In this document: piece by piece, positions 12,057-24,582 of the stretch | Layout of the letters: every line of letters starts with the position of its first letter | Numbering within the stretch: position 1 is the first letter of the stretch | Source of the DNA: Halobacteriovoraceae bacterium | GTDB lineage: Bacteria > Bdellovibrionota > Bacteriovoracia > Bacteriovoracales > Bacteriovoracaceae | Assembly: GCA_963719505.1 (NCBI GenBank) | Contig: CAVRCF010000005.1 | Coordinates: forward strand, 480,001 to 544,000 | Direction of reading: 5' to 3' | DNA length: 64,000 nt | Notes under the pieces: model-generated | Told to the model about the DNA's origin: nothing | The model's input: the letters and a program-made list of their open reading frames with translations, nothing else | Databases searched by the model: none | Translations under genes and position numbers: made by a program

Positions 12057-12338
12057 ATGAAAATAATAAACGAACAGAACTGGACATATACCCACTACAA
12101 AGCCACTGATTTTAAAGCCTTTGTTTCTATAGGTGGAGCTCCTGAGCTCGCTGACGATGATTTTATCTATATGGCCACAATTATCGATACCAATGAGAAC
12201 GAAATTCTTCAAAAAGATTTCAAAAGCATTGATGCAGCGTGTGATTTCTTAAATTCAAAATATTCTGACCTTTGGGACTTCGTCGATGCGCGAGTGGCCA
12301 AGAAAGAAGGTGGTTGCGACAGCTGTGCCGCTCACTAA
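12057..12338 (+). CDS. Small hypothetical protein with C-terminal GGCDSCAAH
   Basis: 93-aa ORF filling the intergenic space; terminal CxxCxxH. Confidence 0.7.
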   Translation: MKIINEQNWTYTHYKATDFKAFVSIGGAPELADDDFIYMATIIDTNENEILQKDFKSIDAACDFLNSKYSDLWDFVDARVAKKEGGCDSCAAH

Positions 12339-13334: not shown

Positions 13335-13409
13335 TTGGACCCCAGTTTAAACTATTTCTCTCATAGGAGGATATGTTATATAATAACAGCATACTTAAAT
13401 GGAGTAAAA

Positions 13410-14624
13410 ATGAAAAAGCTCAAATATCTATCGACTATATATTCTGACGAAGCGACTTCCAAAGATGTAGAAGAACTCATATCAGCAAAAGAGAATTACT
13501 GGAAGGGTTGGAGCTGTACTGCAGGTATTAATAATCTTTATATAGACTACGACGGAAACGTGTTCGTTTGTAATAACTCCAGCTCCAAGCTCGATCGCTT
13601 TAATTACGAGGGCTGGGAGAAGAGAATCGTCGAGCTCAAAGAGAAGGGAATTGACCTTCTCACTGAAGAAGCCCATAAATCAGGACTCTATAAAAAACAC
13701 CAAAGAGCATTTGAGAGATCTGGTAGAGGCTTTGGAAACGAATTAGATTTCTACGAGCCCGAGTCATTTGAGCAGAATTGGGGATTTTTGGGAAGCATCT
13801 ATCAGAATTTTACTATCAATAAAAAAATAGTTAAATGTCCCTACGAGCAGTGTGGATGTGGAGCCGATATTCCAATCACAAAAGCGAGTGATCCAAAGTA
13901 TCTCAAAGCCTTTATCCTCGGCGGAATTTCAGAGGTCGAAAAGCAAGTAAACAAAGACGATATAAAAGACGGATCTCTCCAGCTTGTGACAAAAAGAGGT
14001 GGTATCCTTCCCACTATTCTTTGGGATCTAGGTAGAAGATGCAATTATGATTGCTCTTACTGTTGGCCCGCGGTCCACAATGCCAAAGAAGAGCATAAAG
14101 ATATAGAACTGTTAAAGAAAACATGTAAAAAAATAATGGATGAGCTAGCACCAGGAAAAGTAAAACTTTTCTGCTTCTCAGGCGGAGAACCTACCCTACA
14201 CCCCGATATCACAGAGCTTTTGGAGTTTATTCACATCAATGGACACAGGACATTGATGACGACAAATGGCTCAGCAAAACAAGACAAATGGAAGCAAATT
14301 GCTCCCCTTATCTCCGATATCCAAATGAGTGCACATTTTGAGTCACTCAATGATCAACTTTTTTTGGAAAACGTAGATGTATCTTTAAAAGAGCTTATAA
14401 AAAGTAAAGGGCGAAAGAGTTTAGATGTAAAACTAATGACTCCTCCAGGTGAAATTGAAAGAAGCCTTAAAATGAAAAGCAATATTGAGAAGCTTGAATC
14501 GTTAAAAGAGATTCAACAAGCAAGTTACGAGGGCTTCATCGGTGTCACACTCGTTCCTCTTCGTGGAATCGATAACTCAGAACAGCTCCTAGATTATACA
14601 GAAGAGGAACTCAAAGCTTTTTAA
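13410..14624 (+). CDS. Radical SAM protein with N-terminal twitch-like auxiliary Fe-S domain
   Basis: GGAG RBS before ATG 13410. N-terminal WKGWSCTAG...IDYDGNVFVC...CPYEQCGCGAD; C-terminal CNYDCSYC, SGGEPT and TTNG. Confidence 0.88.
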   Translation: MKKLKYLSTIYSDEATSKDVEELISAKENYWKGWSCTAGINNLYIDYDGNVFVCNNSSSKLDRFNYEGWEKRIVELKEKGIDLLTEEAHKSGLYKKHQRAFERSGRGFGNELDFYEPESFEQNWGFLGSIYQNFTINKKIVKCPYEQCGCGADIPITKASDPKYLKAFILGGISEVEKQVNKDDIKDGSLQLVTKRGGILPTILWDLGRRCNYDCSYCWPAVHNAKEEHKDIELLKKTCKKIMDELAPGKVKLFCFSGGEPTLHPDITELLEFIHINGHRTLMTTNGSAKQDKWKQIAPLISDIQMSAHFESLNDQLFLENVDVSLKELIKSKGRKSLDVKLMTPPGEIERSLKMKSNIEKLESLKEIQQASYEGFIGVTLVPLRGIDNSEQLLDYTEEELKAF

Positions 14625-16443
14625 TTTTTGTGGTCATAATATCTTGACCACAAGAGCATTGTTCTTTATTACAAAGAATTGGTTTTTTTGGGAATCTTAT
14701 TTTGAAGTCATTTATATTACCAAAAACTCCGCCTACTCCACACCAACCTCTCAAAAGCTTACCGTAGAAATCAACACAAATCGTCTCAAGGCCTATATTA
14801 CAATCCCATCCACTCCAGTGATTGAAATTATTTGATATCAATTCAGCTGAATTTGTTCTTAGTTTTTCTCCACCTTTGAAGTTTAAAATAAGCTCACCTC
14901 TTGAGTGATATCGATCACCTTTGAAGGGTTCAACATCAACTGAACGGTTAAGAGATTGAGAGTTTAAAACTTTCATTTGATCACTTGTATAATCGAACAT
15001 CTTCCCATCCATCCCTTCAAGAAGAGGCTGGAGGGCAATGGTCACTGGTGATTCATTGATAATAGATTGGGCCAACTCATGACAAAGATCAAAGTTTTCA
15101 GGCTTCATCATTATATTAACGTGAACTGAAGTTTTTCTACTCGTATATTTGATCACTTTTTGAAAGTGCTCTGGATCCCCTTGTTCTGAGTGAAAGCTGA
15201 ACATGATATGATCAAGAAATTCTAAATTCTCTTCCCAAAATTCAATTTTTCGAGCACCATTTGAAATGATGGCTACATAATGCCCAAGACTTTTTATATG
15301 CCTAATAAGCTCCTTAAACCCTTTATAATAGGTGACTTCGCCACCAGTGAGTTCAAAATGAACTTTTTTATCAGGATACTCGGCCACAACTCGTTCCACA
15401 AATTTTTTGGCAACCTCAAGCTCAACTCCTCTGCTGGTTCCGTTGTGAAGTTCGTCCGGGCAATAAGTACATTTATAATTACATATATTTGTTAGACACC
15501 AATTAACAATAAGTTGGTCTTTATGTTTTTCGTGAACATGAACAAGTGAGCTTGCATCAGACTTTTTATTAACAGCTTGATCCAAATTGATAAACTGAGA
15601 AGGTGTAAATTTTTTCTCTTCGCTGTCAGCTTTACTAGTGACAACTGGAGTCTGATGATTTTTTTCAACTCGTTGTCTATCATTTATCTTTGCATGAACA
15701 ATGAAGTCTTCAGGTATGACATTACTAATTTGCGTTCGTCTACTTAGAGAGGAGGAACGAACAAAAAGGTAACTCAAAAGACTGGTAAAAACATGGAAAA
15801 AAGAGGCCGTGTTGTAGCGATAAAAACTTTTTCTCACAAGAGGCACTCTGTCTAGAAACCTAATATTGAATCTTCGATAGAAACTAAAAAGAATAAGGTG
15901 AAAAAAGATAAACTGATTATCGGGAAGATAAGAGAGATCCTGATAGTCATTTGAAAAGTCCTGGGTTCGAAGAAGATAACAAGAATCACCAGAGACATCT
16001 TTTATAAACTTCATGCCTACAACAGATGAGAAGAAGGTTGATAAAGAGAAGAAAGCCCTCCCAATTGATAAATCTTTGGGTATTCTGGATGATGATATAA
16101 GAGAGTAATTTACTTTATCAGTGGAGCCTATAAAATTTAAAAAGTTTTCATAGTCATCATCACAACCCTCATTAAAGATGGCCGTGTATTCAACTTTCCA
16201 TTCTTTCGCAATAGTTAAGCCAATTTTACACCTATGAGAGGCATCTATATAATCCGTCAGCATTAAAGAATACTCAAAGCCACTCATTTCTCTTTCTATG
16301 TTAGACTTTTCATCTTGAAACTCTCTTGGAATCAAAATGAGAAGATGCTTGGGGAAACTATGTCCTCTTAATCTATCAACGAGACTGTAGAAATAGCGTG
16401 TATCTTTAAAAAATGGGATTACACACAGTGTCTTAAAACTCAT
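14611..16443 (-). CDS. Degenerate GT2-like domain fused to radical SAM and a C-terminal twitch-like domain
   Basis: N-terminus resembles DPM-like GT2 (VIP..., SSR, KDVSG). CNYKCTYC, TGGEVT and ISNG. C-terminal WSGWDCNIG...GWC...CNKEQCSCGQD. Confidence 0.8.
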   Translation of the reverse strand: MSFKTLCVIPFFKDTRYFYSLVDRLRGHSFPKHLLILIPREFQDEKSNIEREMSGFEYSLMLTDYIDASHRCKIGLTIAKEWKVEYTAIFNEGCDDDYENFLNFIGSTDKVNYSLISSSRIPKDLSIGRAFFSLSTFFSSVVGMKFIKDVSGDSCYLLRTQDFSNDYQDLSYLPDNQFIFFHLILFSFYRRFNIRFLDRVPLVRKSFYRYNTASFFHVFTSLLSYLFVRSSSLSRRTQISNVIPEDFIVHAKINDRQRVEKNHQTPVVTSKADSEEKKFTPSQFINLDQAVNKKSDASSLVHVHEKHKDQLIVNWCLTNICNYKCTYCPDELHNGTSRGVELEVAKKFVERVVAEYPDKKVHFELTGGEVTYYKGFKELIRHIKSLGHYVAIISNGARKIEFWEENLEFLDHIMFSFHSEQGDPEHFQKVIKYTSRKTSVHVNIMMKPENFDLCHELAQSIINESPVTIALQPLLEGMDGKMFDYTSDQMKVLNSQSLNRSVDVEPFKGDRYHSRGELILNFKGGEKLRTNSAELISNNFNHWSGWDCNIGLETICVDFYGKLLRGWCGVGGVFGNINDFKIRFPKKPILCNKEQCSCGQDIMTTKIKKL

Positions 16444-16500: not shown

Positions 16501-17865
16501 TTACTTAGGTGGAGCGTAAAGGAGCAATTTATCTGAGTATTTTATGCCTTTCTCGGTGGTCCAGTCTAGAAAATATCCGATCCCAAACTTTCTAAAAAAA
16601 CTCGAGGATCCCTTCTCGTCTAAAACAATATATTTTATTTCACCTGGGCTATTCCAAAGGATAAAAAGAAGAGTAACAGCGTGACTAGTCGATAAATAGC
16701 CTAAATTTCTGTACCCTATCGCCGGAAATTTTTCAAACTCTATCAAACCTTCGCGATCTTTAACCGCATAGAGATAATCTTTTTTCTTTTTTAAAAAGCT
16801 AAACTCCATAAACAAAAGAGAAAAGAAAAGTGAGTAAGCGATAAATTTAAAGCTCCTTAAAAAGATCTTTTCTCGCTCTGGAAAAAGAACCAGGACAAAA
16901 ATGACTATAATGATAAAACCTGCACATATAATTGTCGCAAATGTTCGACCAGCGTAGGGCATCCACAAATCAAACCAGTTGAGCTCCATGAAGACAAAGT
17001 AATTTAACAGGGCACTAAAAACGAAACCAACAAGTTTCATTTTTGGTTTCCACAAACAAAAGAGACTTGTGACTAAAGCCATAGAAAAATTAACAGCCAA
17101 TAACCGAATCAAAACATAGTGCTTATAGCCTTGGAAAAAATTATTGTAATTCCCTGTGTATATTTCTCTATAGAGATTGATTGCATAGATTTGAAAAATA
17201 ATAGAGCTGACCAAAATAAAATAAAGGCTCCAAGCATATTTTTTTTCAAGTTTTTGGGAAAAGACAAACGCAATAAGAAAAGGGCTCACTAAAACAGGAA
17301 GTGGATAGCAACCATTGGCCAAAACAAAAAATAAAATAAACATCCAAAATCTTTTGCCATTTATTTTACATAAAAGTTGAGTCGCAGCGATCCATAAAAA
17401 GCTTATTGCAGGAATAAGCTCACTTACGTGACAAAGAAAACAACTAACAAAGCATAAAAACAAACCAATGGCATGATAAATGGCCAGATGGACCTTCTCC
17501 TTTGGCAAAGTAAAATAGTTAAAAAGGAGGCAAATAAGAGGTATAGAGACGTGAGTAATCTCAAAGATCCGAGAAAGAGTGAGGAGATCATTACCTATAT
17601 AGTTTATGTAAAAGACACTAGGATAATGCAAAACAGCAAAGCCAATATGCCTAAGATCGGGGTGAAAGATCACTTTTTTTCGAATGGAAATCGTGAAAAT
17701 ATACTCGGAAGCATCGTAAAGAAGGGATGACCCAAACATCACAGCTAAAGCACTTAGTATGCATAAGCCGCAAAAAAGAATCCAAAAGTCTTTTCTGATA
17801 TTTTCGATAGTTAACCTCAATATAAAATTCTTTTTAATTTTATTGAATTTAAAGTTATAATGCAA
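16501..17865 (-). CDS. Polytopic membrane protein, GT-C-like
   Basis: About 11-12 hydrophobic segments, an acidic YD just after the first TM and a soluble C-terminal tail; lies in a glycosylation gene context. Confidence 0.5.
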   Translation of the reverse strand: MHYNFKFNKIKKNFILRLTIENIRKDFWILFCGLCILSALAVMFGSSLLYDASEYIFTISIRKKVIFHPDLRHIGFAVLHYPSVFYINYIGNDLLTLSRIFEITHVSIPLICLLFNYFTLPKEKVHLAIYHAIGLFLCFVSCFLCHVSELIPAISFLWIAATQLLCKINGKRFWMFILFFVLANGCYPLPVLVSPFLIAFVFSQKLEKKYAWSLYFILVSSIIFQIYAINLYREIYTGNYNNFFQGYKHYVLIRLLAVNFSMALVTSLFCLWKPKMKLVGFVFSALLNYFVFMELNWFDLWMPYAGRTFATIICAGFIIIVIFVLVLFPEREKIFLRSFKFIAYSLFFSLLFMEFSFLKKKKDYLYAVKDREGLIEFEKFPAIGYRNLGYLSTSHAVTLLFILWNSPGEIKYIVLDEKGSSSFFRKFGIGYFLDWTTEKGIKYSDKLLLYAPPK

Positions 17866-17890: not shown

Positions 17891-19762
17891 ATGTGCGGCA
17901 TATTTGGATTTGTTAACTTAAATCAGCAAAATCTAGAAGGTGCTGAGTTAGAACATGATATCAATAAATTTCTCAAACTCTCAGAGATAAGAGGAAAAGA
18001 CTCGACAGGCCTTGTTATTGAAAAAGAAAACAATCTCGACCTCATAAAGCTTCCTCTAACAGCTTCCAAATTTATGAATACTGATAAATTTAAAGATTTC
18101 AAAAAAAAGAATCTATCGGGAAATATTCAAACACAAAATTTTAGTTATATGGGGCACTGTCGACTGATGACCTCGGGTGCCAGTTTTAATGATCACAATA
18201 ATCAACCGATCGTATCGGGAGATATTATAGGTGTTCACAATGGAATTATTACCAGCGCACCAAAGGACTTCAATGATTCACAGTATATTTTAAAGACAAT
18301 TGAGATGTTTTATAAACAAGAAAATTCTAGCGAGAGTCTGTGCTCTTATCTGACTCAAAAGACCACGGGATCATTTACTTGTGCTTTTTATCATCAACGC
18401 CTGAGACAGCTTATTATAATCACAAATGTAGGCTCTTTATATTATATTAAAAATGAGCATTATTTCCTCTATGCTTCCGAAAGAGAAATACTCCAAAAAT
18501 TTCTAAAAAGTTCTGCTCTTGAAAACATTGACAATAATATTATCACTCAACTAAAACCTCATGAGCAATTAGCAATAGATTTAGAATCAAGAAAAGTTGT
18601 CTCAAGTGAAGAGAAAATGATTTATAGAGACGACAATTTTTATAACGTTAACTACTCGATACGATCTCCAGACAGTCTTAAAAGGTGCTCTCGCTGTATC
18701 CTTCCCTCCACCTACCCTTTTATCCATTTTGATACAAAAGGTGTTTGTAACTTCTGTCTCCATTACCAAAAACAAAAGCTTCACGGCGAGGAAGCTCTTT
18801 TGAGATACCTCGATAAATTTCGCTCCAAAGATGGATCACCAGACACTTTGGTTGGACTTAGTGGAGGAAGAGATAGTTGTTATGGAATTCATCTTCTAAA
18901 GACAAAGTACGGTATGAATCCTGTAGCTTATACATTTGACTGGGGCTTAACAACGGAGATCTCAAGAAAAAATCAAGCTCTCATGTGCGGGGAACTTGGG
19001 ATAGAGCATATAATCAGAACACCAGATATCGTTAAAAAGCGTCGATTTGTGAGAAAAAATGTCATGGCATGGTGTAAGAAGCCTCATCTTGGAATGGTCC
19101 CTCTCTTTCAAGCTGGTGATAAAGAATTTTATCACTATGGACGCAAGCTTAGAGAAGAACTCAATATAGACCTGACTGTCCTATGCTCTGGCTACCAACT
19201 TGAACAAAGAGAGTTTATGATAGGCTTTGCGGGAGTCGATCAACCGCCGGTGAGAAACAATCACGACTTTTACTATCACCCCATGAGCACAAAGCTTCAC
19301 TTGGCATATCGTTACTGCCTAGAGTATTTAAAGAATCCTGCTTATATCAACGAGAGTTTTTACGAAAGTGTGCGGGCTTATTTTATGAGTTTTTTTGCAA
19401 AGTCAGATTTTCTCTACCTCTTTCATTATCTCCCTTGGAATGAATCCGAAATCGATTCCGTCCTGAAGAATAAATACGGATGGATTACCGACGATGGCTA
19501 TGGAAAAAACCAGTGGCGTATGGGAGATGGCCAGACAGCATTTAATAATTATATCTACTATAAAGTTGCCGGGTTCTCAGAATATGATACCTTTCGCTCC
19601 AATCAAATTCGCGAAGGGTTGATCTCACGAGACGAGGCGATAAAACTGACAAAGCTTGATAACATACCTAAAACTGAAAGCATGAATGAATTTTTTAAAC
19701 TTATCGGACTCTCAGAAGAAGAAGTGATGAGAAGGATTGAATCTATCCCCACCCTTTATTGA
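17891..19762 (+). CDS. Class II (Ntn) glutaminase fused to PP-loop N-acetyl-sugar amidotransferase (WbuX/PseA-like)
   Basis: N-terminal MCGIFG, RGKDSTG, GHCR and HNG; C-terminal RCSRCILP...CNFC, GLSGGRDS and IREGLISRDEA. Confidence 0.85.
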   Translation: MCGIFGFVNLNQQNLEGAELEHDINKFLKLSEIRGKDSTGLVIEKENNLDLIKLPLTASKFMNTDKFKDFKKKNLSGNIQTQNFSYMGHCRLMTSGASFNDHNNQPIVSGDIIGVHNGIITSAPKDFNDSQYILKTIEMFYKQENSSESLCSYLTQKTTGSFTCAFYHQRLRQLIIITNVGSLYYIKNEHYFLYASEREILQKFLKSSALENIDNNIITQLKPHEQLAIDLESRKVVSSEEKMIYRDDNFYNVNYSIRSPDSLKRCSRCILPSTYPFIHFDTKGVCNFCLHYQKQKLHGEEALLRYLDKFRSKDGSPDTLVGLSGGRDSCYGIHLLKTKYGMNPVAYTFDWGLTTEISRKNQALMCGELGIEHIIRTPDIVKKRRFVRKNVMAWCKKPHLGMVPLFQAGDKEFYHYGRKLREELNIDLTVLCSGYQLEQREFMIGFAGVDQPPVRNNHDFYYHPMSTKLHLAYRYCLEYLKNPAYINESFYESVRAYFMSFFAKSDFLYLFHYLPWNESEIDSVLKNKYGWITDDGYGKNQWRMGDGQTAFNNYIYYKVAGFSEYDTFRSNQIREGLISRDEAIKLTKLDNIPKTESMNEFFKLIGLSEEEVMRRIESIPTLY

Positions 19763-20496
19763 GAATAGACACCAGTCAATTTGTAATAATAAATGCGCAA
19801 AATGTCTTTAAGCATATAGATGCCGTCTTTTAGGACTTTCACGCTTTTTCCATCTTGGGATCTCAAAGTAACGCATGTCTTTTTAATATTCATTTTTAAA
19901 AGTGTAGCAATCAAAATAATTTCTGTATCGATAGCGAATCTATTGACTCGGGAGAGGCCAAAAAGCTTTTTGCCAATGGACGATTTAAAGGACTTAAAAC
20001 CGACTTGGGTATCAATTCTTTTTCCTAAAAGAGGATAAGTTGCATAGGTATAGAGCAAACTAAAAAAAGCTCTCTTTAACCCAACCTTTGATCCATAACG
20101 ACTCCGATTAAGACTTCTATCACCTAAAACTAAATCCGCCCTATTCTCTGCCAAAGCACTGAGGGACTCTAAAACGAAGTCAAAATTATAGGGAATATCT
20201 GAATCGGTGAAAGTGATAACATCACACTTGGCACAATCGAAGCCTCTTCTCAAAGCCTCTCCCTTTCCTGTGTTTTCCGAAATATAGATATAGTTAAACC
20301 CATAGGCTTGAGCTAATTTTTTCGTCATTTTTCTTTCAATAAGTTCACTTCCATCGTCGACAATAATCACCTCAAAAGAAATTTCTTTTTCATTAAGATG
20401 AGAAAGCAAATAATCAATATTAAGTTCCAGAGCTTTAGAGGAATTAAAGCAAGGGATCACAAAGCTTACTGATAGAGGTTTTACTAGACTAGTCAT
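19756..20496 (-). CDS. GT2 glycosyltransferase, polyprenyl/dolichyl-phosphate glycosyltransferase-like
   Basis: IPCFN, IVDDGS, NTGKGEA, DSD, GDR, DTQVGFK and FAIDTEI; start overlaps the upstream stop codon. Confidence 0.88.
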   Translation of the reverse strand: MTSLVKPLSVSFVIPCFNSSKALELNIDYLLSHLNEKEISFEVIIVDDGSELIERKMTKKLAQAYGFNYIYISENTGKGEALRRGFDCAKCDVITFTDSDIPYNFDFVLESLSALAENRADLVLGDRSLNRSRYGSKVGLKRAFFSLLYTYATYPLLGKRIDTQVGFKSFKSSIGKKLFGLSRVNRFAIDTEIILIATLLKMNIKKTCVTLRSQDGKSVKVLKDGIYMLKDILRIYYYKLTGVYSQ

Positions 20497-21862
20497 GAGC
20501 CAATGTTTTCGCCTTTTCATAAAATTCACTATATTCTGGAAAGTACTTTAAGAAGTTCATCTGTCGTCTATGTTCGATTTTTTCAGTGAAGGCATAAAAG
20601 TCTTTCATCGTCTGATCTGATACATCATTGTTTGAAATACCTTTTTTAATGCTGTACATGAAAGGCAAGTAGGCACTCCATCTTTGCGCTGAATTTTCAC
20701 CAAAAGCGGTACATCTAAAGATTCCGGCCTCTGGGTTGGCAAGCTTGGTCTCAACTAATTCGATACATTTATCAACATAGTGCTCAAACTCTGGTCCCAG
20801 TGTGTAGGGAGAAAGATAGTCCGGGGCAACAACAATATTTTCTTTGTAATCGATTAAAACGTTATATTTATTTTGTAACTCCCAAGCGTACTCTAGAAGA
20901 TTTGAGAGACTTGAGATACACAAATTATTAATAGCAAGCTGAAGACCAAATCTAAAATTTGGAAAACGCCTCTCAAGAGTGTTGGTGATATTCTCAACCA
21001 TAATATGCCAATTGGCACCGGCTCTGATATATTCTGTTTTTTTATCAAAAGATTCCCCTGAGACTTCAAGGTGAACGATATAATTTTTTGATAGTTCTTC
21101 AACAGTATCTAAGAACTCATTAAACTTTTTGACTGGGATTCCAAAGTTAGAAATAATTTGAATAATTGGTTTTTCATGGATAGATAAGTCCTTGGGAGTT
21201 CTTCTGTTTATCTCTTCCAAGTAGTGCAGAAAGTTTTTATTAACAAGAGGCTCTCCCCCAATAAAAATAATTCTCTTTAATGTTTTTTTTATTTTATCAA
21301 ACCACAGCCAAAAGTACTCATCAAAGGCCTCTGGTTTTGTGGTGGTGTTTCGATGCATTGACTCTTTTGATCGATCGCCAAATTTAACACTCTCACGCTC
21401 CCATTCAGTACTAAAGTCATCTGAGCAGTAAACGCATTTATAATTACACTGGTTACTTAGGGCAATCTCTAAAAGCTCAGGTTGGTCGGCCCTTAGATAT
21501 TTTTCTTCTTTTTTGTATTTGATTTCGTCGAAGGATTTATTCTCACCAGTTTGAGTATTCATCCACTGAGTAAAAGGTTCAGCTCCAGTTCTAGAGCTCA
21601 TTAGCCCTTTATCCTCTAAAATGATGCAGCTAAAACAATCTTTGTGTCTTAGACCATCAAGTTTCTCCCTTCTACGTTCTAATAAATAGGGATGATTGAT
21701 AAAGGCATCTGTGCCATAAAGTTTAAAGTCTTCGTCGGTTAATTGATAATTGATTGTCTTATCACAAGTTCTAATCTGGCCTCGATCGACCATGATAACA
21801 GGATAGCTCCATCTCCACTTACAAATAGTTTTCTCGGGTTCAAACTGACCTTCAATTCTCAT
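20489..21862 (-). CDS. N-terminal twitch-domain radical SAM protein
   Basis: N-terminal CKWRW...RTC...CFSC; SNQCNYKCVYC, IGGEPL, EYIRAGANW; GAGGAG RBS. Confidence 0.88.
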   Translation of the reverse strand: MRIEGQFEPEKTICKWRWSYPVIMVDRGQIRTCDKTINYQLTDEDFKLYGTDAFINHPYLLERRREKLDGLRHKDCFSCIILEDKGLMSSRTGAEPFTQWMNTQTGENKSFDEIKYKKEEKYLRADQPELLEIALSNQCNYKCVYCSDDFSTEWERESVKFGDRSKESMHRNTTTKPEAFDEYFWLWFDKIKKTLKRIIFIGGEPLVNKNFLHYLEEINRRTPKDLSIHEKPIIQIISNFGIPVKKFNEFLDTVEELSKNYIVHLEVSGESFDKKTEYIRAGANWHIMVENITNTLERRFPNFRFGLQLAINNLCISSLSNLLEYAWELQNKYNVLIDYKENIVVAPDYLSPYTLGPEFEHYVDKCIELVETKLANPEAGIFRCTAFGENSAQRWSAYLPFMYSIKKGISNNDVSDQTMKDFYAFTEKIEHRRQMNFLKYFPEYSEFYEKAKTLAHD

Positions 21863-22211: not shown

Positions 22212-23633
22212 ATGCTGGAAAAGCTAACGACGGCCCAAAAGGCTTTAAAAATTAACCTAGATCCAAATATCTATGGCACATTCGCCGAAATCGGTGCTGG
22301 TCAAGAGGTTGCCGGAAATTTCTTTAAAGCTGGTGCGGCCAGTGGAACAGTGGCCAAGTCAATTTCAGCTTACGATATGATCTTCTCAGACAGTATCTAT
22401 GGTAAAGAACCTTCAGGGCGATACGTCTGTCAATCTCGGCTCAATAAAATGATAAAGTATGAATACGACCTCGTTCTTGAGAGACTTTTAACAAGTAGAA
22501 ACTCTGGTAAATATTTTGCCTTCGCCAACACTGTATCAGCTCGAAACTTTCATGGCACTAATGAAGCTCATGGATGGATGGGCTTACGATTTCAGCACGA
22601 AGAAAGTAGTGATGCCTCCGACATCGTCATCCACATTAGAATGCATGACAATTCGAATTTACTGCAGCAAAAGGCCATAGGGATTCTTGGCGTTAACATG
22701 ATTTACGCCAGCTACTTCTCTAGCGGCAATCTAAAGAACTTCGTACAAACTCTTATGGATAACTTGGGACGAGAAAGAATTGAAATCGATATGATCTCGG
22801 TAGCTGGTCCGGCTTTTGCACATTTTGATAATAGACTTGTGAATCTAAAATTGCTCGAGTTGGGCCTCACAGATGCAGTGCTTTTTGATAAAGCGGGAAA
22901 GATTACCTTACCCAGCGAGGAACTCTATAAAAAGAATATTCTTATCGCTCGTGGAAGTTATCGCCCACCTACATACGTAAACTCAGATATTATGAAAACG
23001 GGGATCGAGAACTTCTCAAAAGATGTAAGTTCCAAAAAAGATGAAATTTTAAATCTCGCTGAAATAACGATCACAAATTTAAATTCAGCTGGAGAATTTG
23101 CAAATGAAGACTTTCTCGCAAGAGTCGATCTTTTAACCAGTATGAACCAACCCGTTATTATTACCAACTTTGCCCAGTATTTTAAACTATCTAATTATCT
23201 CCAGCGATTCAAACCAAAGAAGATTGCCATTGTTCTTGGTGCCTATAACTTCATGCAAATTTTCGATACCGAGTACAGCGAAAGAACCGAAAGTGTCCTG
23301 GATTCAGTTTCGCAACTGTTAAAGCCAAACGTGTGCATTTACCTGTACCCTTTTAAAGAAGAAAACCAAAGTGATGACCTCATCAGTCTGGCGACAATGG
23401 AAGTGTCTAAAGACAATCAATACCTTTTAGAGCATATCAAACACTCAAAGCAGGTCAAAGATCTTCAAGGAGTCGATAATTCGCTCCTTCATATTTATTC
23501 CAGAAAAGTTCTAACAATGATCACTTCATCTGAGCCCGGTTGGGAGAAATATGTTCCTGATGAAATTTCAAAAACAATAAATGAAAAATGCCTCTTTGGA
23601 CACCCATGTGATTTTCCAGAAAAAGAAGACTAA
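22212..23633 (+). CDS. Nucleotidyltransferase-like conserved protein (NMN adenylyltransferase-like family)
   Basis: KALKINL..IYGTFAEIGAGQEVA, GAASGTVAKSISAYD and RGSYRPPT (HIGH-like) are typical of this conserved family; function uncertain. Confidence 0.6.
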   Translation: MLEKLTTAQKALKINLDPNIYGTFAEIGAGQEVAGNFFKAGAASGTVAKSISAYDMIFSDSIYGKEPSGRYVCQSRLNKMIKYEYDLVLERLLTSRNSGKYFAFANTVSARNFHGTNEAHGWMGLRFQHEESSDASDIVIHIRMHDNSNLLQQKAIGILGVNMIYASYFSSGNLKNFVQTLMDNLGRERIEIDMISVAGPAFAHFDNRLVNLKLLELGLTDAVLFDKAGKITLPSEELYKKNILIARGSYRPPTYVNSDIMKTGIENFSKDVSSKKDEILNLAEITITNLNSAGEFANEDFLARVDLLTSMNQPVIITNFAQYFKLSNYLQRFKPKKIAIVLGAYNFMQIFDTEYSERTESVLDSVSQLLKPNVCIYLYPFKEENQSDDLISLATMEVSKDNQYLLEHIKHSKQVKDLQGVDNSLLHIYSRKVLTMITSSEPGWEKYVPDEISKTINEKCLFGHPCDFPEKED

Positions 23634-24582
23634 TTATCTTACATTCGTTATAGGTCTTCTTTTATCTGGAGCCTCACTGACATATATTTTAATGCAAACT
23701 CCTTTTGAAGAGTTTAAAGAACACCTAACTTCTATTGATCCAATATTTTTCTCCTTATCTATCCTCGTCAATATTCTTGGATATTTTATTCACGCAACGA
23801 GATGGAGAATACTCTTTGAGGGGAAATATCCTCTTTTTGCTTTCTATCACTCCATTACGATAGGAAACCTGGCCAATACTATTCTACCGAGTAAAAGTGG
23901 TGAACTCCTAAGGCCACTGGCGCTTAAAACTCAAATTGGTGTCTCATACGCAAAAGCTCTCAGTAATTGCTTCTTAGAGCGTCTTTTTGATATTGTTTTT
24001 GGTCTAACAATTCTTTTCTTTTCTATAATCTATCTCGATTTACTTGAAAAGTTTGAGATCTTCAGAAGTGGAATACTGATAACAGTGGCGTTAATAGTAC
24101 TTCTATTTTTCATTATCATTTTTGCTTTAAAAATTGATTTAAAAAGATTTATCCATTCAGCTCCCATTAATGGCTTTTTCCTGAACTTAAAAGAGCAATT
24201 TCAGCATCTGGTAAAAGCTCGTGTAACGTTGAAAATGATAGTGATGACAACTATTTTTTGGAGTGCTGGGGTTTTAATTTTTTACTTTCTCCTACTATCA
24301 TCACCTCTTCCTGAAGCTCTTCAGACTCTGCCTTTTGCTGCTTTTTTAAGTTCAGCGATGGGAATAACGCTTTCACTACCAAGTGCGCCTGCGAATATTG
24401 GCGTGTTCAATCTAACAATTATTATACTAATGAAAATTTATTTGGAGCAAAATGCCATTAAAGTGGATGATACTTTGGAGGCGCAAATTGTTGCCTCATC
24501 TATCGTTATCCATTTGGGATCACTGATACCTGATTTCGTCATGGGAAGTTTGTCTATGATTAAAATGAGTCGATTAAATTAA
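23581..24582 (+). CDS. UPF0104 / lysylphosphatidylglycerol synthase TM-domain membrane protein (flippase-like)
   Basis: RW, NTILPSKSGELLR, ERLFD and PSAPANIG motifs; multiple TM segments; true start may be slightly downstream. Confidence 0.85.
   Translation: MKNASLDTHVIFQKKKTNYLTFVIGLLLSGASLTYILMQTPFEEFKEHLTSIDPIFFSLSILVNILGYFIHATRWRILFEGKYPLFAFYHSITIGNLANTILPSKSGELLRPLALKTQIGVSYAKALSNCFLERLFDIVFGLTILFFSIIYLDLLEKFEIFRSGILITVALIVLLFFIIIFALKIDLKRFIHSAPINGFFLNLKEQFQHLVKARVTLKMIVMTTIFWSAGVLIFYFLLLSSPLPEALQTLPFAAFLSSAMGITLSLPSAPANIGVFNLTIIILMKIYLEQNAIKVDDTLEAQIVASSIVIHLGSLIPDFVMGSLSMIKMSRLN

Follow-up and report, generated by a model that had tools for sequence, protein, structure and literature searches.

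Much unusual chemistry comes from radical S-adenosylmethionine (SAM) enzymes that carry auxiliary iron-sulphur (Fe-S) clusters, and the role and geometry of the auxiliary cluster are debated. The twitch type, whose founding member is BtrN, is recognised by the signature C-x9-15-G-x4-C, and in the known twitch enzymes the auxiliary cluster serves as a substrate anchor or electron sink. As a general rule, twitch and SPASM domains are C-terminal to the catalytic barrel. The solved twitch enzymes BlsE (7vob), SkfB (6efn), SpeY (7wzv) and MoaA (1tv7) consist of a partial-barrel core and a small one-cluster domain, and the same two parts are predicted in the products of two convergent genes, here called A and B, that lie in a 64,000-nucleotide stretch of DNA from a Halobacteriovoraceae bacterium (the window: positions 480,001 to 544,000 of contig CAVRCF010000005.1, assembly GCA_963719505.1). 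Sequence comparison strongly supports the view that the two enzymes are paralogues of the twitch type in which the order of the two domains has been swapped. The catalogued family NF033640 (N_Twi_rSAM) resembles A in that its auxiliary cysteine domain precedes the core, and both families are uncharacterised.

In the literature that we searched we found no assayed member of the A or B family, and nothing on circularly permuted radical SAM or SPASM enzymes, on N-terminal twitch or SPASM domains, or on NF033640. The pair is a natural test of chain connectivity, since homologous auxiliary domains that share a motif are attached at opposite ends of the barrel, and selection maintains the two layouts next to each other in dozens of phage genomes. 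The explanation that we favour, and consider reasonably probable, is that A and B are a paralogous twitch-type pair, one of them with a relocated domain, which performs consecutive steps of sugar tailoring and travels in a replaceable bacterial cassette or a phage module.

Homology and domain order of A and B

Gene A (13410..14624, forward strand) encodes a radical SAM enzyme of 404 amino acids (aa) with an N-terminal auxiliary cysteine domain; a longer TTG start at 13335 is available, and the starts of homologues in an alignment of 30 relatives do not back it. Gene B (14611..16443, reverse strand) encodes 610 aa comprising a glycosyltransferase (GT)-fold domain, a radical SAM core and a C-terminal auxiliary cysteine domain. 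The two open reading frames (ORFs) converge and share 14 nt at their 3' ends (14611..14624), as the preliminary description of the locus had stated; the overlap is not conserved, and a short gap takes its place in two related contigs (L007 and L009). Both products match Pfam Radical_SAM (PF04055, cut-off 29.5 bits), A with 60.4 bits over residues 208-322 and B with 47.9 bits. The AlphaFold 2 (AF2) models have a predicted local distance difference test (pLDDT) score of 86.9 for A, with a predicted template modelling (pTM) score of 0.87, and a pLDDT of 88.0 for B. From Pfam, alignment and profile comparison, the core spans residues 201-404 in A (14010..14621, forward) and 308-515 in B (14899..15522, reverse). 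Its CX3CX2C motif is formed by C211, C215 and C218 in A (14040..14063) and by C321, C325 and C328 in B (15460..15483), and the GGE motif is invariant in each (G258-G259-E260 and G367-G368-E369). The predicted twitch-like auxiliary Fe-S domain occupies residues 14-160 of A (13449..13889, forward; Cys 36, 54, 143, 148 and 150) and residues 522-610 of B (14614..14880, reverse; Cys 548, 568, 591, 596 and 598).

The likeness between the N-terminus of A and the C-terminus of B, and that between the catalytic domains, had been read from the letters by eye, and both are borne out. BLASTP of A against B gave the two off-diagonal blocks that were expected, a core block pairing A155-403 with B266-492 (expect value (E) 4e-18, 26% identity) and an auxiliary block pairing A14-51 with B526-563 (E 6e-6). 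When sub-profiles made from 30 relatives of A (alignment A1) and 32 relatives of B (alignment A2) were compared with hhalign, residues 14-165 of A matched the last 89 residues of B with a probability of 99.5% (E 3.3e-22, 81 columns spanning the insert) and the cores matched at E 2.1e-38, whereas the cross controls, auxiliary domain against core, gave E 0.22 and 0.09. The gap in the auxiliary alignment, together with the AF2 model, delimits a helical insert of about 65-70 aa in A (residues 56-124; 13575..13781, forward) with helices at 66-78, 86-91, 93-102 and 117-122. An insert of about 65 aa had been claimed from the start, and it is absent from many shorter relatives, proteins of 330-360 aa that match A125-403 from about their residue 60.

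Little or no variation is seen in either family in the auxiliary motif C-x12-G-x4(6)-C ... C-x4-C-x-C-x2-D-x4-K. The twitch signature within it reads C36-x12-G49-x4-C54 in A and C548-x12-G561-x6-C568 in B, where the spacing is two residues longer. Across the 30 aligned relatives of A, C36, C143, C148 and C150 are invariant; across the 32 of B the same holds for C548, C568, C591 and C596, and at least 90% retain C598. Each auxiliary domain thus has five conserved cysteines, and should therefore hold one auxiliary cluster, as in twitch enzymes, and not two as in SPASM enzymes. The Pfam SPASM model (PF13186) gave A 15.0 bits at residues 36-62, below its cut-off of 21.5, and had no match to B at E <= 1. 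The second auxiliary cysteine of A is at position 54 in most relatives ('C-N-x-x-S'); in a subset that position is taken by Ala or Gly and the Cys comes two residues further on ('A-N-C-x-S'), a shift around residues 54-56 that may represent a cluster ligand on the move.

In the AF2 models both auxiliary domains present the same order of elements: two strands, a helix, a Cys, a hairpin, a Cys, the insert in A, a strand and CX4CXC. B has this domain C-terminal to its core, as is expected of SPASM and twitch enzymes, and A has it N-terminal, so that 'circular permutation' is a fair label for the pair at the level of domain order. Cysteine-rich motifs do recur by chance, and the second half of the auxiliary match lies beyond a gap of 65 aa, which might lead one to read the likeness as coincidence or as an artefact of gene calling. 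That reading is refuted by the profile E-value set against those of the controls, by the motif spacing, which is conserved alike in 30 and 32 relatives, and by the hundreds of proteins that keep the layout of A at about 95% coverage, and we give it practically no credence.

Structural superposition on twitch enzymes agrees with the domain orders. The core and auxiliary domain of the B model (residues 308-608) align with VIA-align along the whole of BlsE (Z 18.9, root-mean-square deviation (rmsd) 3.4, 266 residues aligned), and other whole-enzyme alignments were obtained with SkfB (Z 18.2), viperin-like enzymes (Z 17.3) and MoaA (Z 16.2). The A model superposes by its core only, best on PFL-AE (Z 13.7) and on BlsE with Z 12.3 over residues 198-404; alignment by the core alone is what would be predicted if the auxiliary domain was relocated. 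Sequence searches of the PDB with the A and B profiles matched cores only and found no solved relative of the auxiliary domain. The first and last strands of a partial TIM barrel share its lateral opening, and an auxiliary domain could for that reason cap the opening from either end, in which case A and B would keep an equal working geometry.

Family breadth and origin of the N-terminal layout

Relatives of A are numerous. A word-indexed search returned 517 at E <= 1e-3, mostly of about 410 aa and with 95% coverage, and an exhaustive search of representatives returned 4265 at E <= 1e-3 and 542 at E <= 1e-10. B is rare as a 610-aa fusion (11 full-length relatives), and its last 310 residues correspond to a family of stand-alone proteins, about 320 aa long, for which 170 matches were obtained. 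We surveyed the layout of 162 sequences (the 150 best representatives of the exhaustive A search and 12 others) with hidden Markov models (HMMs) of four sub-domains. The auxiliary domain is in front of the core in 85 (N-type) and behind it in 66 (C-type); nine have none, these being mostly fragments plus the NF033640 enzyme encoded near A and B, two have no core, and none of the 162 has the domain at both ends. This census supersedes a strict motif count (66 N-type, 42 C-type, 40 without the strict motif and two without CX3CX2C). The natural circular permutation that had been proposed for the locus therefore stands as a swap of domain order, and is an old event of the whole family and not one specific to these two genes.

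In a FastTree phylogeny of the cores alone (138 N- or C-classed rows with a core of at least 150 aa, 13 shorter ones dropped, and the NF033640 neighbour as outgroup), all 76 N-type rows form one clade with a support of 97, and the layout label changes once. As the sampling is centred on A and the basal branches of this tree are unresolved, the direction of the change rests on the rule that twitch and SPASM domains are C-terminal. It is probable that the layout of the A lineage arose by one ancient relocation of the domain to the front, and that the insert was gained later.

A cassette neighbour of A and B (P0003, described below) belongs to NF033640, and the N-terminal twitch domain is thus a layout already catalogued. 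We considered A as a member of that family and ruled it out: its score is 43.6 bits where the cut-off is 170, it matches over profile positions 116-231 of the core only, and the N-domains are not detectably related. NF033640 is not among the 25 best families for B. The A1 alignment matches P0003 in 92 columns, all of them in the core. With an alignment of the N_Twi N-domain made from P0003 and up to 39 N_Twi-like ORFs of the fetched loci, hhalign gave E 0.097 for the N-domain of A and E 0.5 for the C-domain of B, and the N_Twi cores matched those of A and B at E 6.5e-11 and 3.8e-13. The distal cysteines also differ, C-x4-C-x-C in A and, by eye, C76-x2-C79 in P0003. Because the front domain of A is so much closer to the rear domain of B than to the N-domain of NF033640, it probably derives from a B-like rear domain. 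A and B also resemble each other far more than either resembles NF033640, so that domain order would have changed at least twice overall. We infer that A represents a separate relocation, of a twitch-like domain different from that of NF033640. In genome G000 there is a second full NF033640 gene (C1:404825-405991, 304.7 bits) and a 290-aa frame (C3:264834-265034) that matches only the N-terminal twitch part of the family, profile positions 5-70.

A conserved module in jumbo phages

A scan of viral contigs with A found relatives in 248 contigs, and 76 loci were kept. Taking at least 300 bits as a strong A and at least 400 bits as a strong B in HMM searches of six-frame ORFs, 52 of the 76 loci contain a strong A, and all but one of these have a strong B upstream, on the same strand and within 3 kb (51/52); in the exception, L049, B is cut by the contig end. 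Several of the 52 loci are near-copies, and we count roughly 38 different pairs of scores among them. The two open frames overlap, or are separated by no more than 22 nt, in 42 of the 51 pairs. The converse scan, with B, found 408 stretches with relatives, from which 79 loci were kept, 17 of them with a strong B. A strong A lies downstream of it in 11 of these loci; in one A is cut by the contig end, one has a lower-scoring N-type gene, and there is no A within 6 kb in the other four. A is almost never found without B, B occurs alone at times, and together they are a conserved module. That the two might act in consecutive steps had been suggested from the window alone, and it fits both the retention of the pair in these phages and the fusion proteins, described below, that link its partners.

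The viral records are those of tailed jumbo phages. One of them is 348.7 kb long and 100% complete by CheckV, and the presence of Terminase_6N in two of five records supports tailed phages; a capsid model of nucleocytoplasmic large DNA viruses (NCLDV) matched none of the five, and the controls gave no match either. In two annotated phage loci a virion structural protein whose C-terminal domain is of the fibre type is followed by several unknown genes and then by B and A. An FkbM methyltransferase gene can precede B, and A is followed by one to three radical SAM genes with an N-terminal SPASM match and by a B12-binding one; one locus adds TauD, an Asp/Arg hydroxylase, two QueC-like PP-loop proteins and a fatty-acid desaturase. 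The complete phage of 348.7 kb has, directly after A, a gene (L057:11221-13545, forward) for a 774-aa B12-binding radical SAM enzyme, after which come two radical SAM genes with N-terminal SPASM matches. NF033640 enzymes are abundant in the same phage loci as A, and an iterated search of viral loci L013-L177, seeded by P0003, found 286 ORFs of at least 100 bits in addition to A and B. A tblastn search with A of the INPHARED phage records gave no match, so there is no close relative of A among the cultured phages of that collection, and BFVD returned moderate matches only, to radical SAM proteins of uncultured phages with a template modelling (TM) score of at most 0.65.

NF033640 is also found fused to A and to B. 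In a Bacteriovoracaceae contig an uninterrupted frame of 902 aa (L009:1401-4106, forward) contains NF033640 (246.4 bits, residues 21-458) and then an A-type enzyme, apparently a natural fusion of two radical SAM enzymes. In a protein of 802 aa (P0131), NF033640 (255.6 bits, residues 25-460) is joined to a B-type enzyme in place of the GT-fold domain. Extra Pfam domains occur in three of the 19 long relatives that were scanned: one of 1516 aa joins an N-type radical SAM enzyme to two family 2 glycosyltransferase (GT2) domains (P0283), and two join a C-type enzyme to two methyltransferase domains (P0356) or to a sulfotransferase-like domain (P0397).

So close an association also invites the idea, already raised in the preliminary description, of a heterodimer. 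A and B would then be an obligate complex, a two-headed machine whose auxiliary domains, placed at opposite ends of the chains, come together. A complex prediction of A with residues 301-610 of B scored 0.55 (runs 0.53, 0.59 and 0.55), where the best of three controls reached 0.00, the contacts of the runs agreed, and the partner had a pLDDT of at least 78; the near-perfect co-occurrence of A with B and the overlapping or abutting frames of most phage pairs suggest coupled translation. The tool grades this result as 'weak support', and by its calibration a pass at or below 0.60 is wrong more often than right unless the interaction is likely beforehand. Paralogues such as A and B could also reach a score through a generic interface of the homodimer type, A is missing from four of the 17 strong-B loci, and in the bacteria the genes are convergent and hence not co-translated. 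We regard an obligate heterodimer as a serious idea but a doubtful one.

The cassette in Bacteriovoracaceae

The closest cellular relatives are in three contigs labelled Bacteriovoracaceae (L007, L008 and L009); the convergent pair is kept in L007 and L009, and L008 ends before B could appear. Our scan of genome contigs yielded six loci, depended on two peptide patterns and is no measure of distribution. At E <= 1e-40 the A1 alignment matches eight of 201 genomes of the window's order, a patchy distribution, and neither of two other genomes of the same genus. In another genus of the family (L092:1244-3470), a more distantly related gene of the N-type is convergent with a stand-alone C-type one, their frames overlapping by 2 nt.

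In the window, A and B are the first two of six genes that form a cassette at 13.4-21.9 kb, set between the genes of a lipoate-protein ligase (LplA) and aminopeptidase N (PepN). The third (16501..17865, reverse) encodes a polytopic membrane protein of 454 aa, a candidate GT-C-type transferase by its ESM Atlas neighbours (DUF6056 at 0.96, GtrII at 0.95), which matches no Pfam or NCBIfam family. It is followed by a glutamine amidotransferase joined to a WbuX-like PP-loop N-acetyl-sugar amidotransferase (17891..19762, forward; Pfam GATase_6, and NCBIfam TIGR03573 with 142.7 bits, below the cut-off of 203.2), a GT2 enzyme (19756..20529, reverse; Pfam Glycos_transf_2, 76.4 bits) and, 6 kb away from A, the third radical SAM enzyme, P0003 (20489..21862, reverse), an NF033640 member with an N-terminal twitch domain (207.8 bits, above the cut-off of 170).

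The same slot in a genome of the same genus (G134) reads PepN-p473-p192-LplA and holds none of the six genes, the 454-aa membrane protein included, and in another genome (G164) it holds about 20 kb of other genes, GT2s among them. The cassette is an exchangeable island, a type of region in which surface-glycan genes are found. In its flank lies a gene for a flippase-like membrane protein of the LPG_synthase_TM family (23581..24582, forward; PF03706 with 112.9 bits, TIGR00374 with 50.2 bits above a cut-off of 43.2), which is present in G164 and not in G134. A 473-aa protein (22212..23633, forward), which has no Pfam, NCBIfam or PADLOC family, stands beside PepN in both same-genus genomes at 61-75% identity and so belongs to the stable flank and not to the cassette. 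Upstream of the lipoate-protein ligase gene there is a 93-aa ORF (12057..12338, forward) with a Cys-rich tail ending in GGCDSCAAH. The preliminary description had the domain swap right and the context incomplete, for it missed the GT-fold domain of B, the third radical SAM gene, the origin of the pair in phages or its kinship with them, and the catalogued family NF033640.

Function of the pair

The first 250 residues of B (15694..16443, reverse) are divergent in sequence and are predicted to adopt the GT-A fold of polyprenyl-phosphate glycosyltransferases. The model aligns with DPMS (5mlz; Z 16.7, rmsd 3.2, 209 residues aligned) and ArnC (9hwj; Z 15.6), Foldseek matched it to ArnC, GtrB and DPMS, and it appears to share the juxtamembrane helices of these enzymes. 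Residues 1-300 have no match in Pfam or NCBIfam, the GT2 model included. Among the 11 full-length relatives only D149, D153, F163, D175 and N211 are nearly invariant in this domain, and 'E-G-x-x-D' stands where a DXD motif is expected, no clear DXD being found. By its sequence the domain may serve for binding or anchoring only, and its fusion to B would indicate a concrete class of substrate for the pair.

Several clues point to a sugar: the GT fold of B, the GT2, WbuX-like and flippase-like neighbours, the fusions to glycosyltransferase, methyltransferase and sulfotransferase domains, and the BlsE-like fold. The closest full-length solved folds to the B model, those of BlsE, viperin-like enzymes and MoaA, act on nucleoside or nucleotide sugars or on nucleotides. 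Consecutive radical tailoring of a sugar-type substrate by A and B is in our view the most likely function.

The pair could instead mature a peptide or protein, in the manner of ribosomally synthesised and post-translationally modified peptide (RiPP) systems or by modifying a virion or tail-fibre protein. The highest-ranking structural matches to B include SkfB, SuiB, EpeE, PqqE and anSME (Z 15.5-18.2), the B profile has EpeE/YydG as its top sequence match in the PDB (E 5.4e-9), and the phage pair lies a few kb downstream of the structural protein with the fibre-type domain. Pfam scans of A and B showed no RRE or PqqD domain (a precursor peptide was not searched for), the fusions and the cassette partners are those of sugar enzymes, and the five auxiliary cysteines are twitch-like where peptide-modifying SPASM enzymes have seven or eight. 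On this evidence peptide maturation seems improbable.

Even less probable, to the point that we would be surprised by it, is a viperin-like modification of nucleotides for antiviral defence or phage counter-defence. Prokaryotic viperin (NF038283) is the best NCBIfam match to both proteins (A 59.4 and B 54.6 bits), the PADLOC pVip model gives them 63.4 and 56.5 bits, and the top Foldseek match to A is a viperin (E 2.4e-6). These likenesses, the best among curated models and in Foldseek, concern the first half of the cores: of 257-281 profile positions the match takes in only the first ~100, the generic half that binds the cluster, and the scores are far below the cut-off of 180 bits for a full-length match. 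PADLOC also found nothing in the three other cassette and flank proteins scanned. We know of no auxiliary cluster domain in viperins, and A and B carry one in addition to the core.

In the consecutive tailoring that we favour, A and B would each hold a SAM-cleaving [4Fe-4S] cluster at CX3CX2C and one auxiliary [4Fe-4S] cluster in the Cys-rich domain, which in the B lineage follows the barrel in the usual order and in the A lineage would have moved once to the front. SAM would be cleaved at the first cluster, and the twitch-like cluster would serve as substrate anchor or electron sink. B would act first and A second on one sugar-type substrate, linked to a nucleotide or to polyprenyl phosphate, the candidate steps being oxidation, epimerisation, dehydration or rearrangement; further steps would fall to the amidotransferase and the NF033640 enzyme. 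In the bacterium the ArnC/DPMS-fold domain may hold B at the membrane beside the lipid-linked sugar, which would then be flipped and transferred to a surface glycan, and in jumbo phages the B-then-A tandem would work within operons of radical SAM and sugar enzymes near virion structural genes.

A number of points weigh against this proposal. The peptide maturase SkfB nearly equals BlsE in its alignment with the B model, and the place of the phage pair near a virion structural protein may mean that the target is a protein. The four strong-B viral loci in which A is lacking suggest that B can work without it. The GT-fold domain of B may be inactive, because it has no Pfam GT2 match, no clear DXD motif and poor conservation, and the GT-C assignment of the 454-aa membrane protein is a lead from the Atlas only. 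An equal placement of the auxiliary domain in the three-dimensional models of A and B is suggested indirectly, the pTM of the whole A chain being the sole sign of it. For every member of the two families, finally, clusters, substrate and product are predictions.

One may go further and suppose that an auxiliary Fe-S domain became N-terminal at least twice independently, in NF033640 and in the A lineage, that A exists only as a partner of B, that B-then-A is an obligate and possibly heterodimeric radical machine with which phages build a radical-edited sugar, and that Bacteriovoracaceae captured this machine. As a whole this is speculative and rather unlikely. If it were true, jumbo phages would place an unknown radical-edited sugar on the virion or the infected cell, and the predatory Bacteriovoracaceae would have joined the module to a lipid-carrier-binding GT-fold domain and decorated their own surface with the product. 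The pair in any case marks an unstudied and widespread pathway, common to jumbo phages and predatory bacteria, that probably leads to a new modified sugar.

Comparison with known systems

Compared with the solved twitch enzymes, A and B have only 12-18% identity, and the match in sequence is confined to the cores. The distal motif C-x4-C-x-C-x2-D-x4-K is the two families' own, and in A the order of the domains is reversed.

The polyprenyl-phosphate glycosyltransferase systems ArnC/ArnT, GtrA/GtrB/GtrX and DPMS share their fold with the first 250 residues of the B model (Z 15.6-16.7). The three roles of such systems are those of a GT2, a flippase and a large polytopic membrane protein, and for all three there is a counterpart in the cassette and its flank, a flippase-like protein in the case of the second. 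The domain of B differs in failing the Pfam GT2 model and in having no clear DXD, and to our knowledge no such system has a radical SAM partner.

For the phages the nearest described parallel is in T4-like pelagimyophages, where radical SAM cassettes occur in a 'host recognition cluster' (Zaragoza-Solas et al. 2020, PMC7029224). As with the genes described here, those cassettes lie among glycosyltransferases beside tail-fibre genes, and they come and go between close genomes; the passages of that report that we consulted do not name families, domain orders or pairs, and the present phages are larger, one of them reaching 348.7 kb.

The N-terminal twitch layout as such is known already from NF033640. 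What the A/B locus adds is a second, and apparently separately derived, N-terminal family whose unpermuted paralogue is kept adjacent to it, a near-obligate B-then-A module in jumbo phages, and a bacterial version of that module joined to what is predicted to be a lipid-carrier glycosyltransferase fold.

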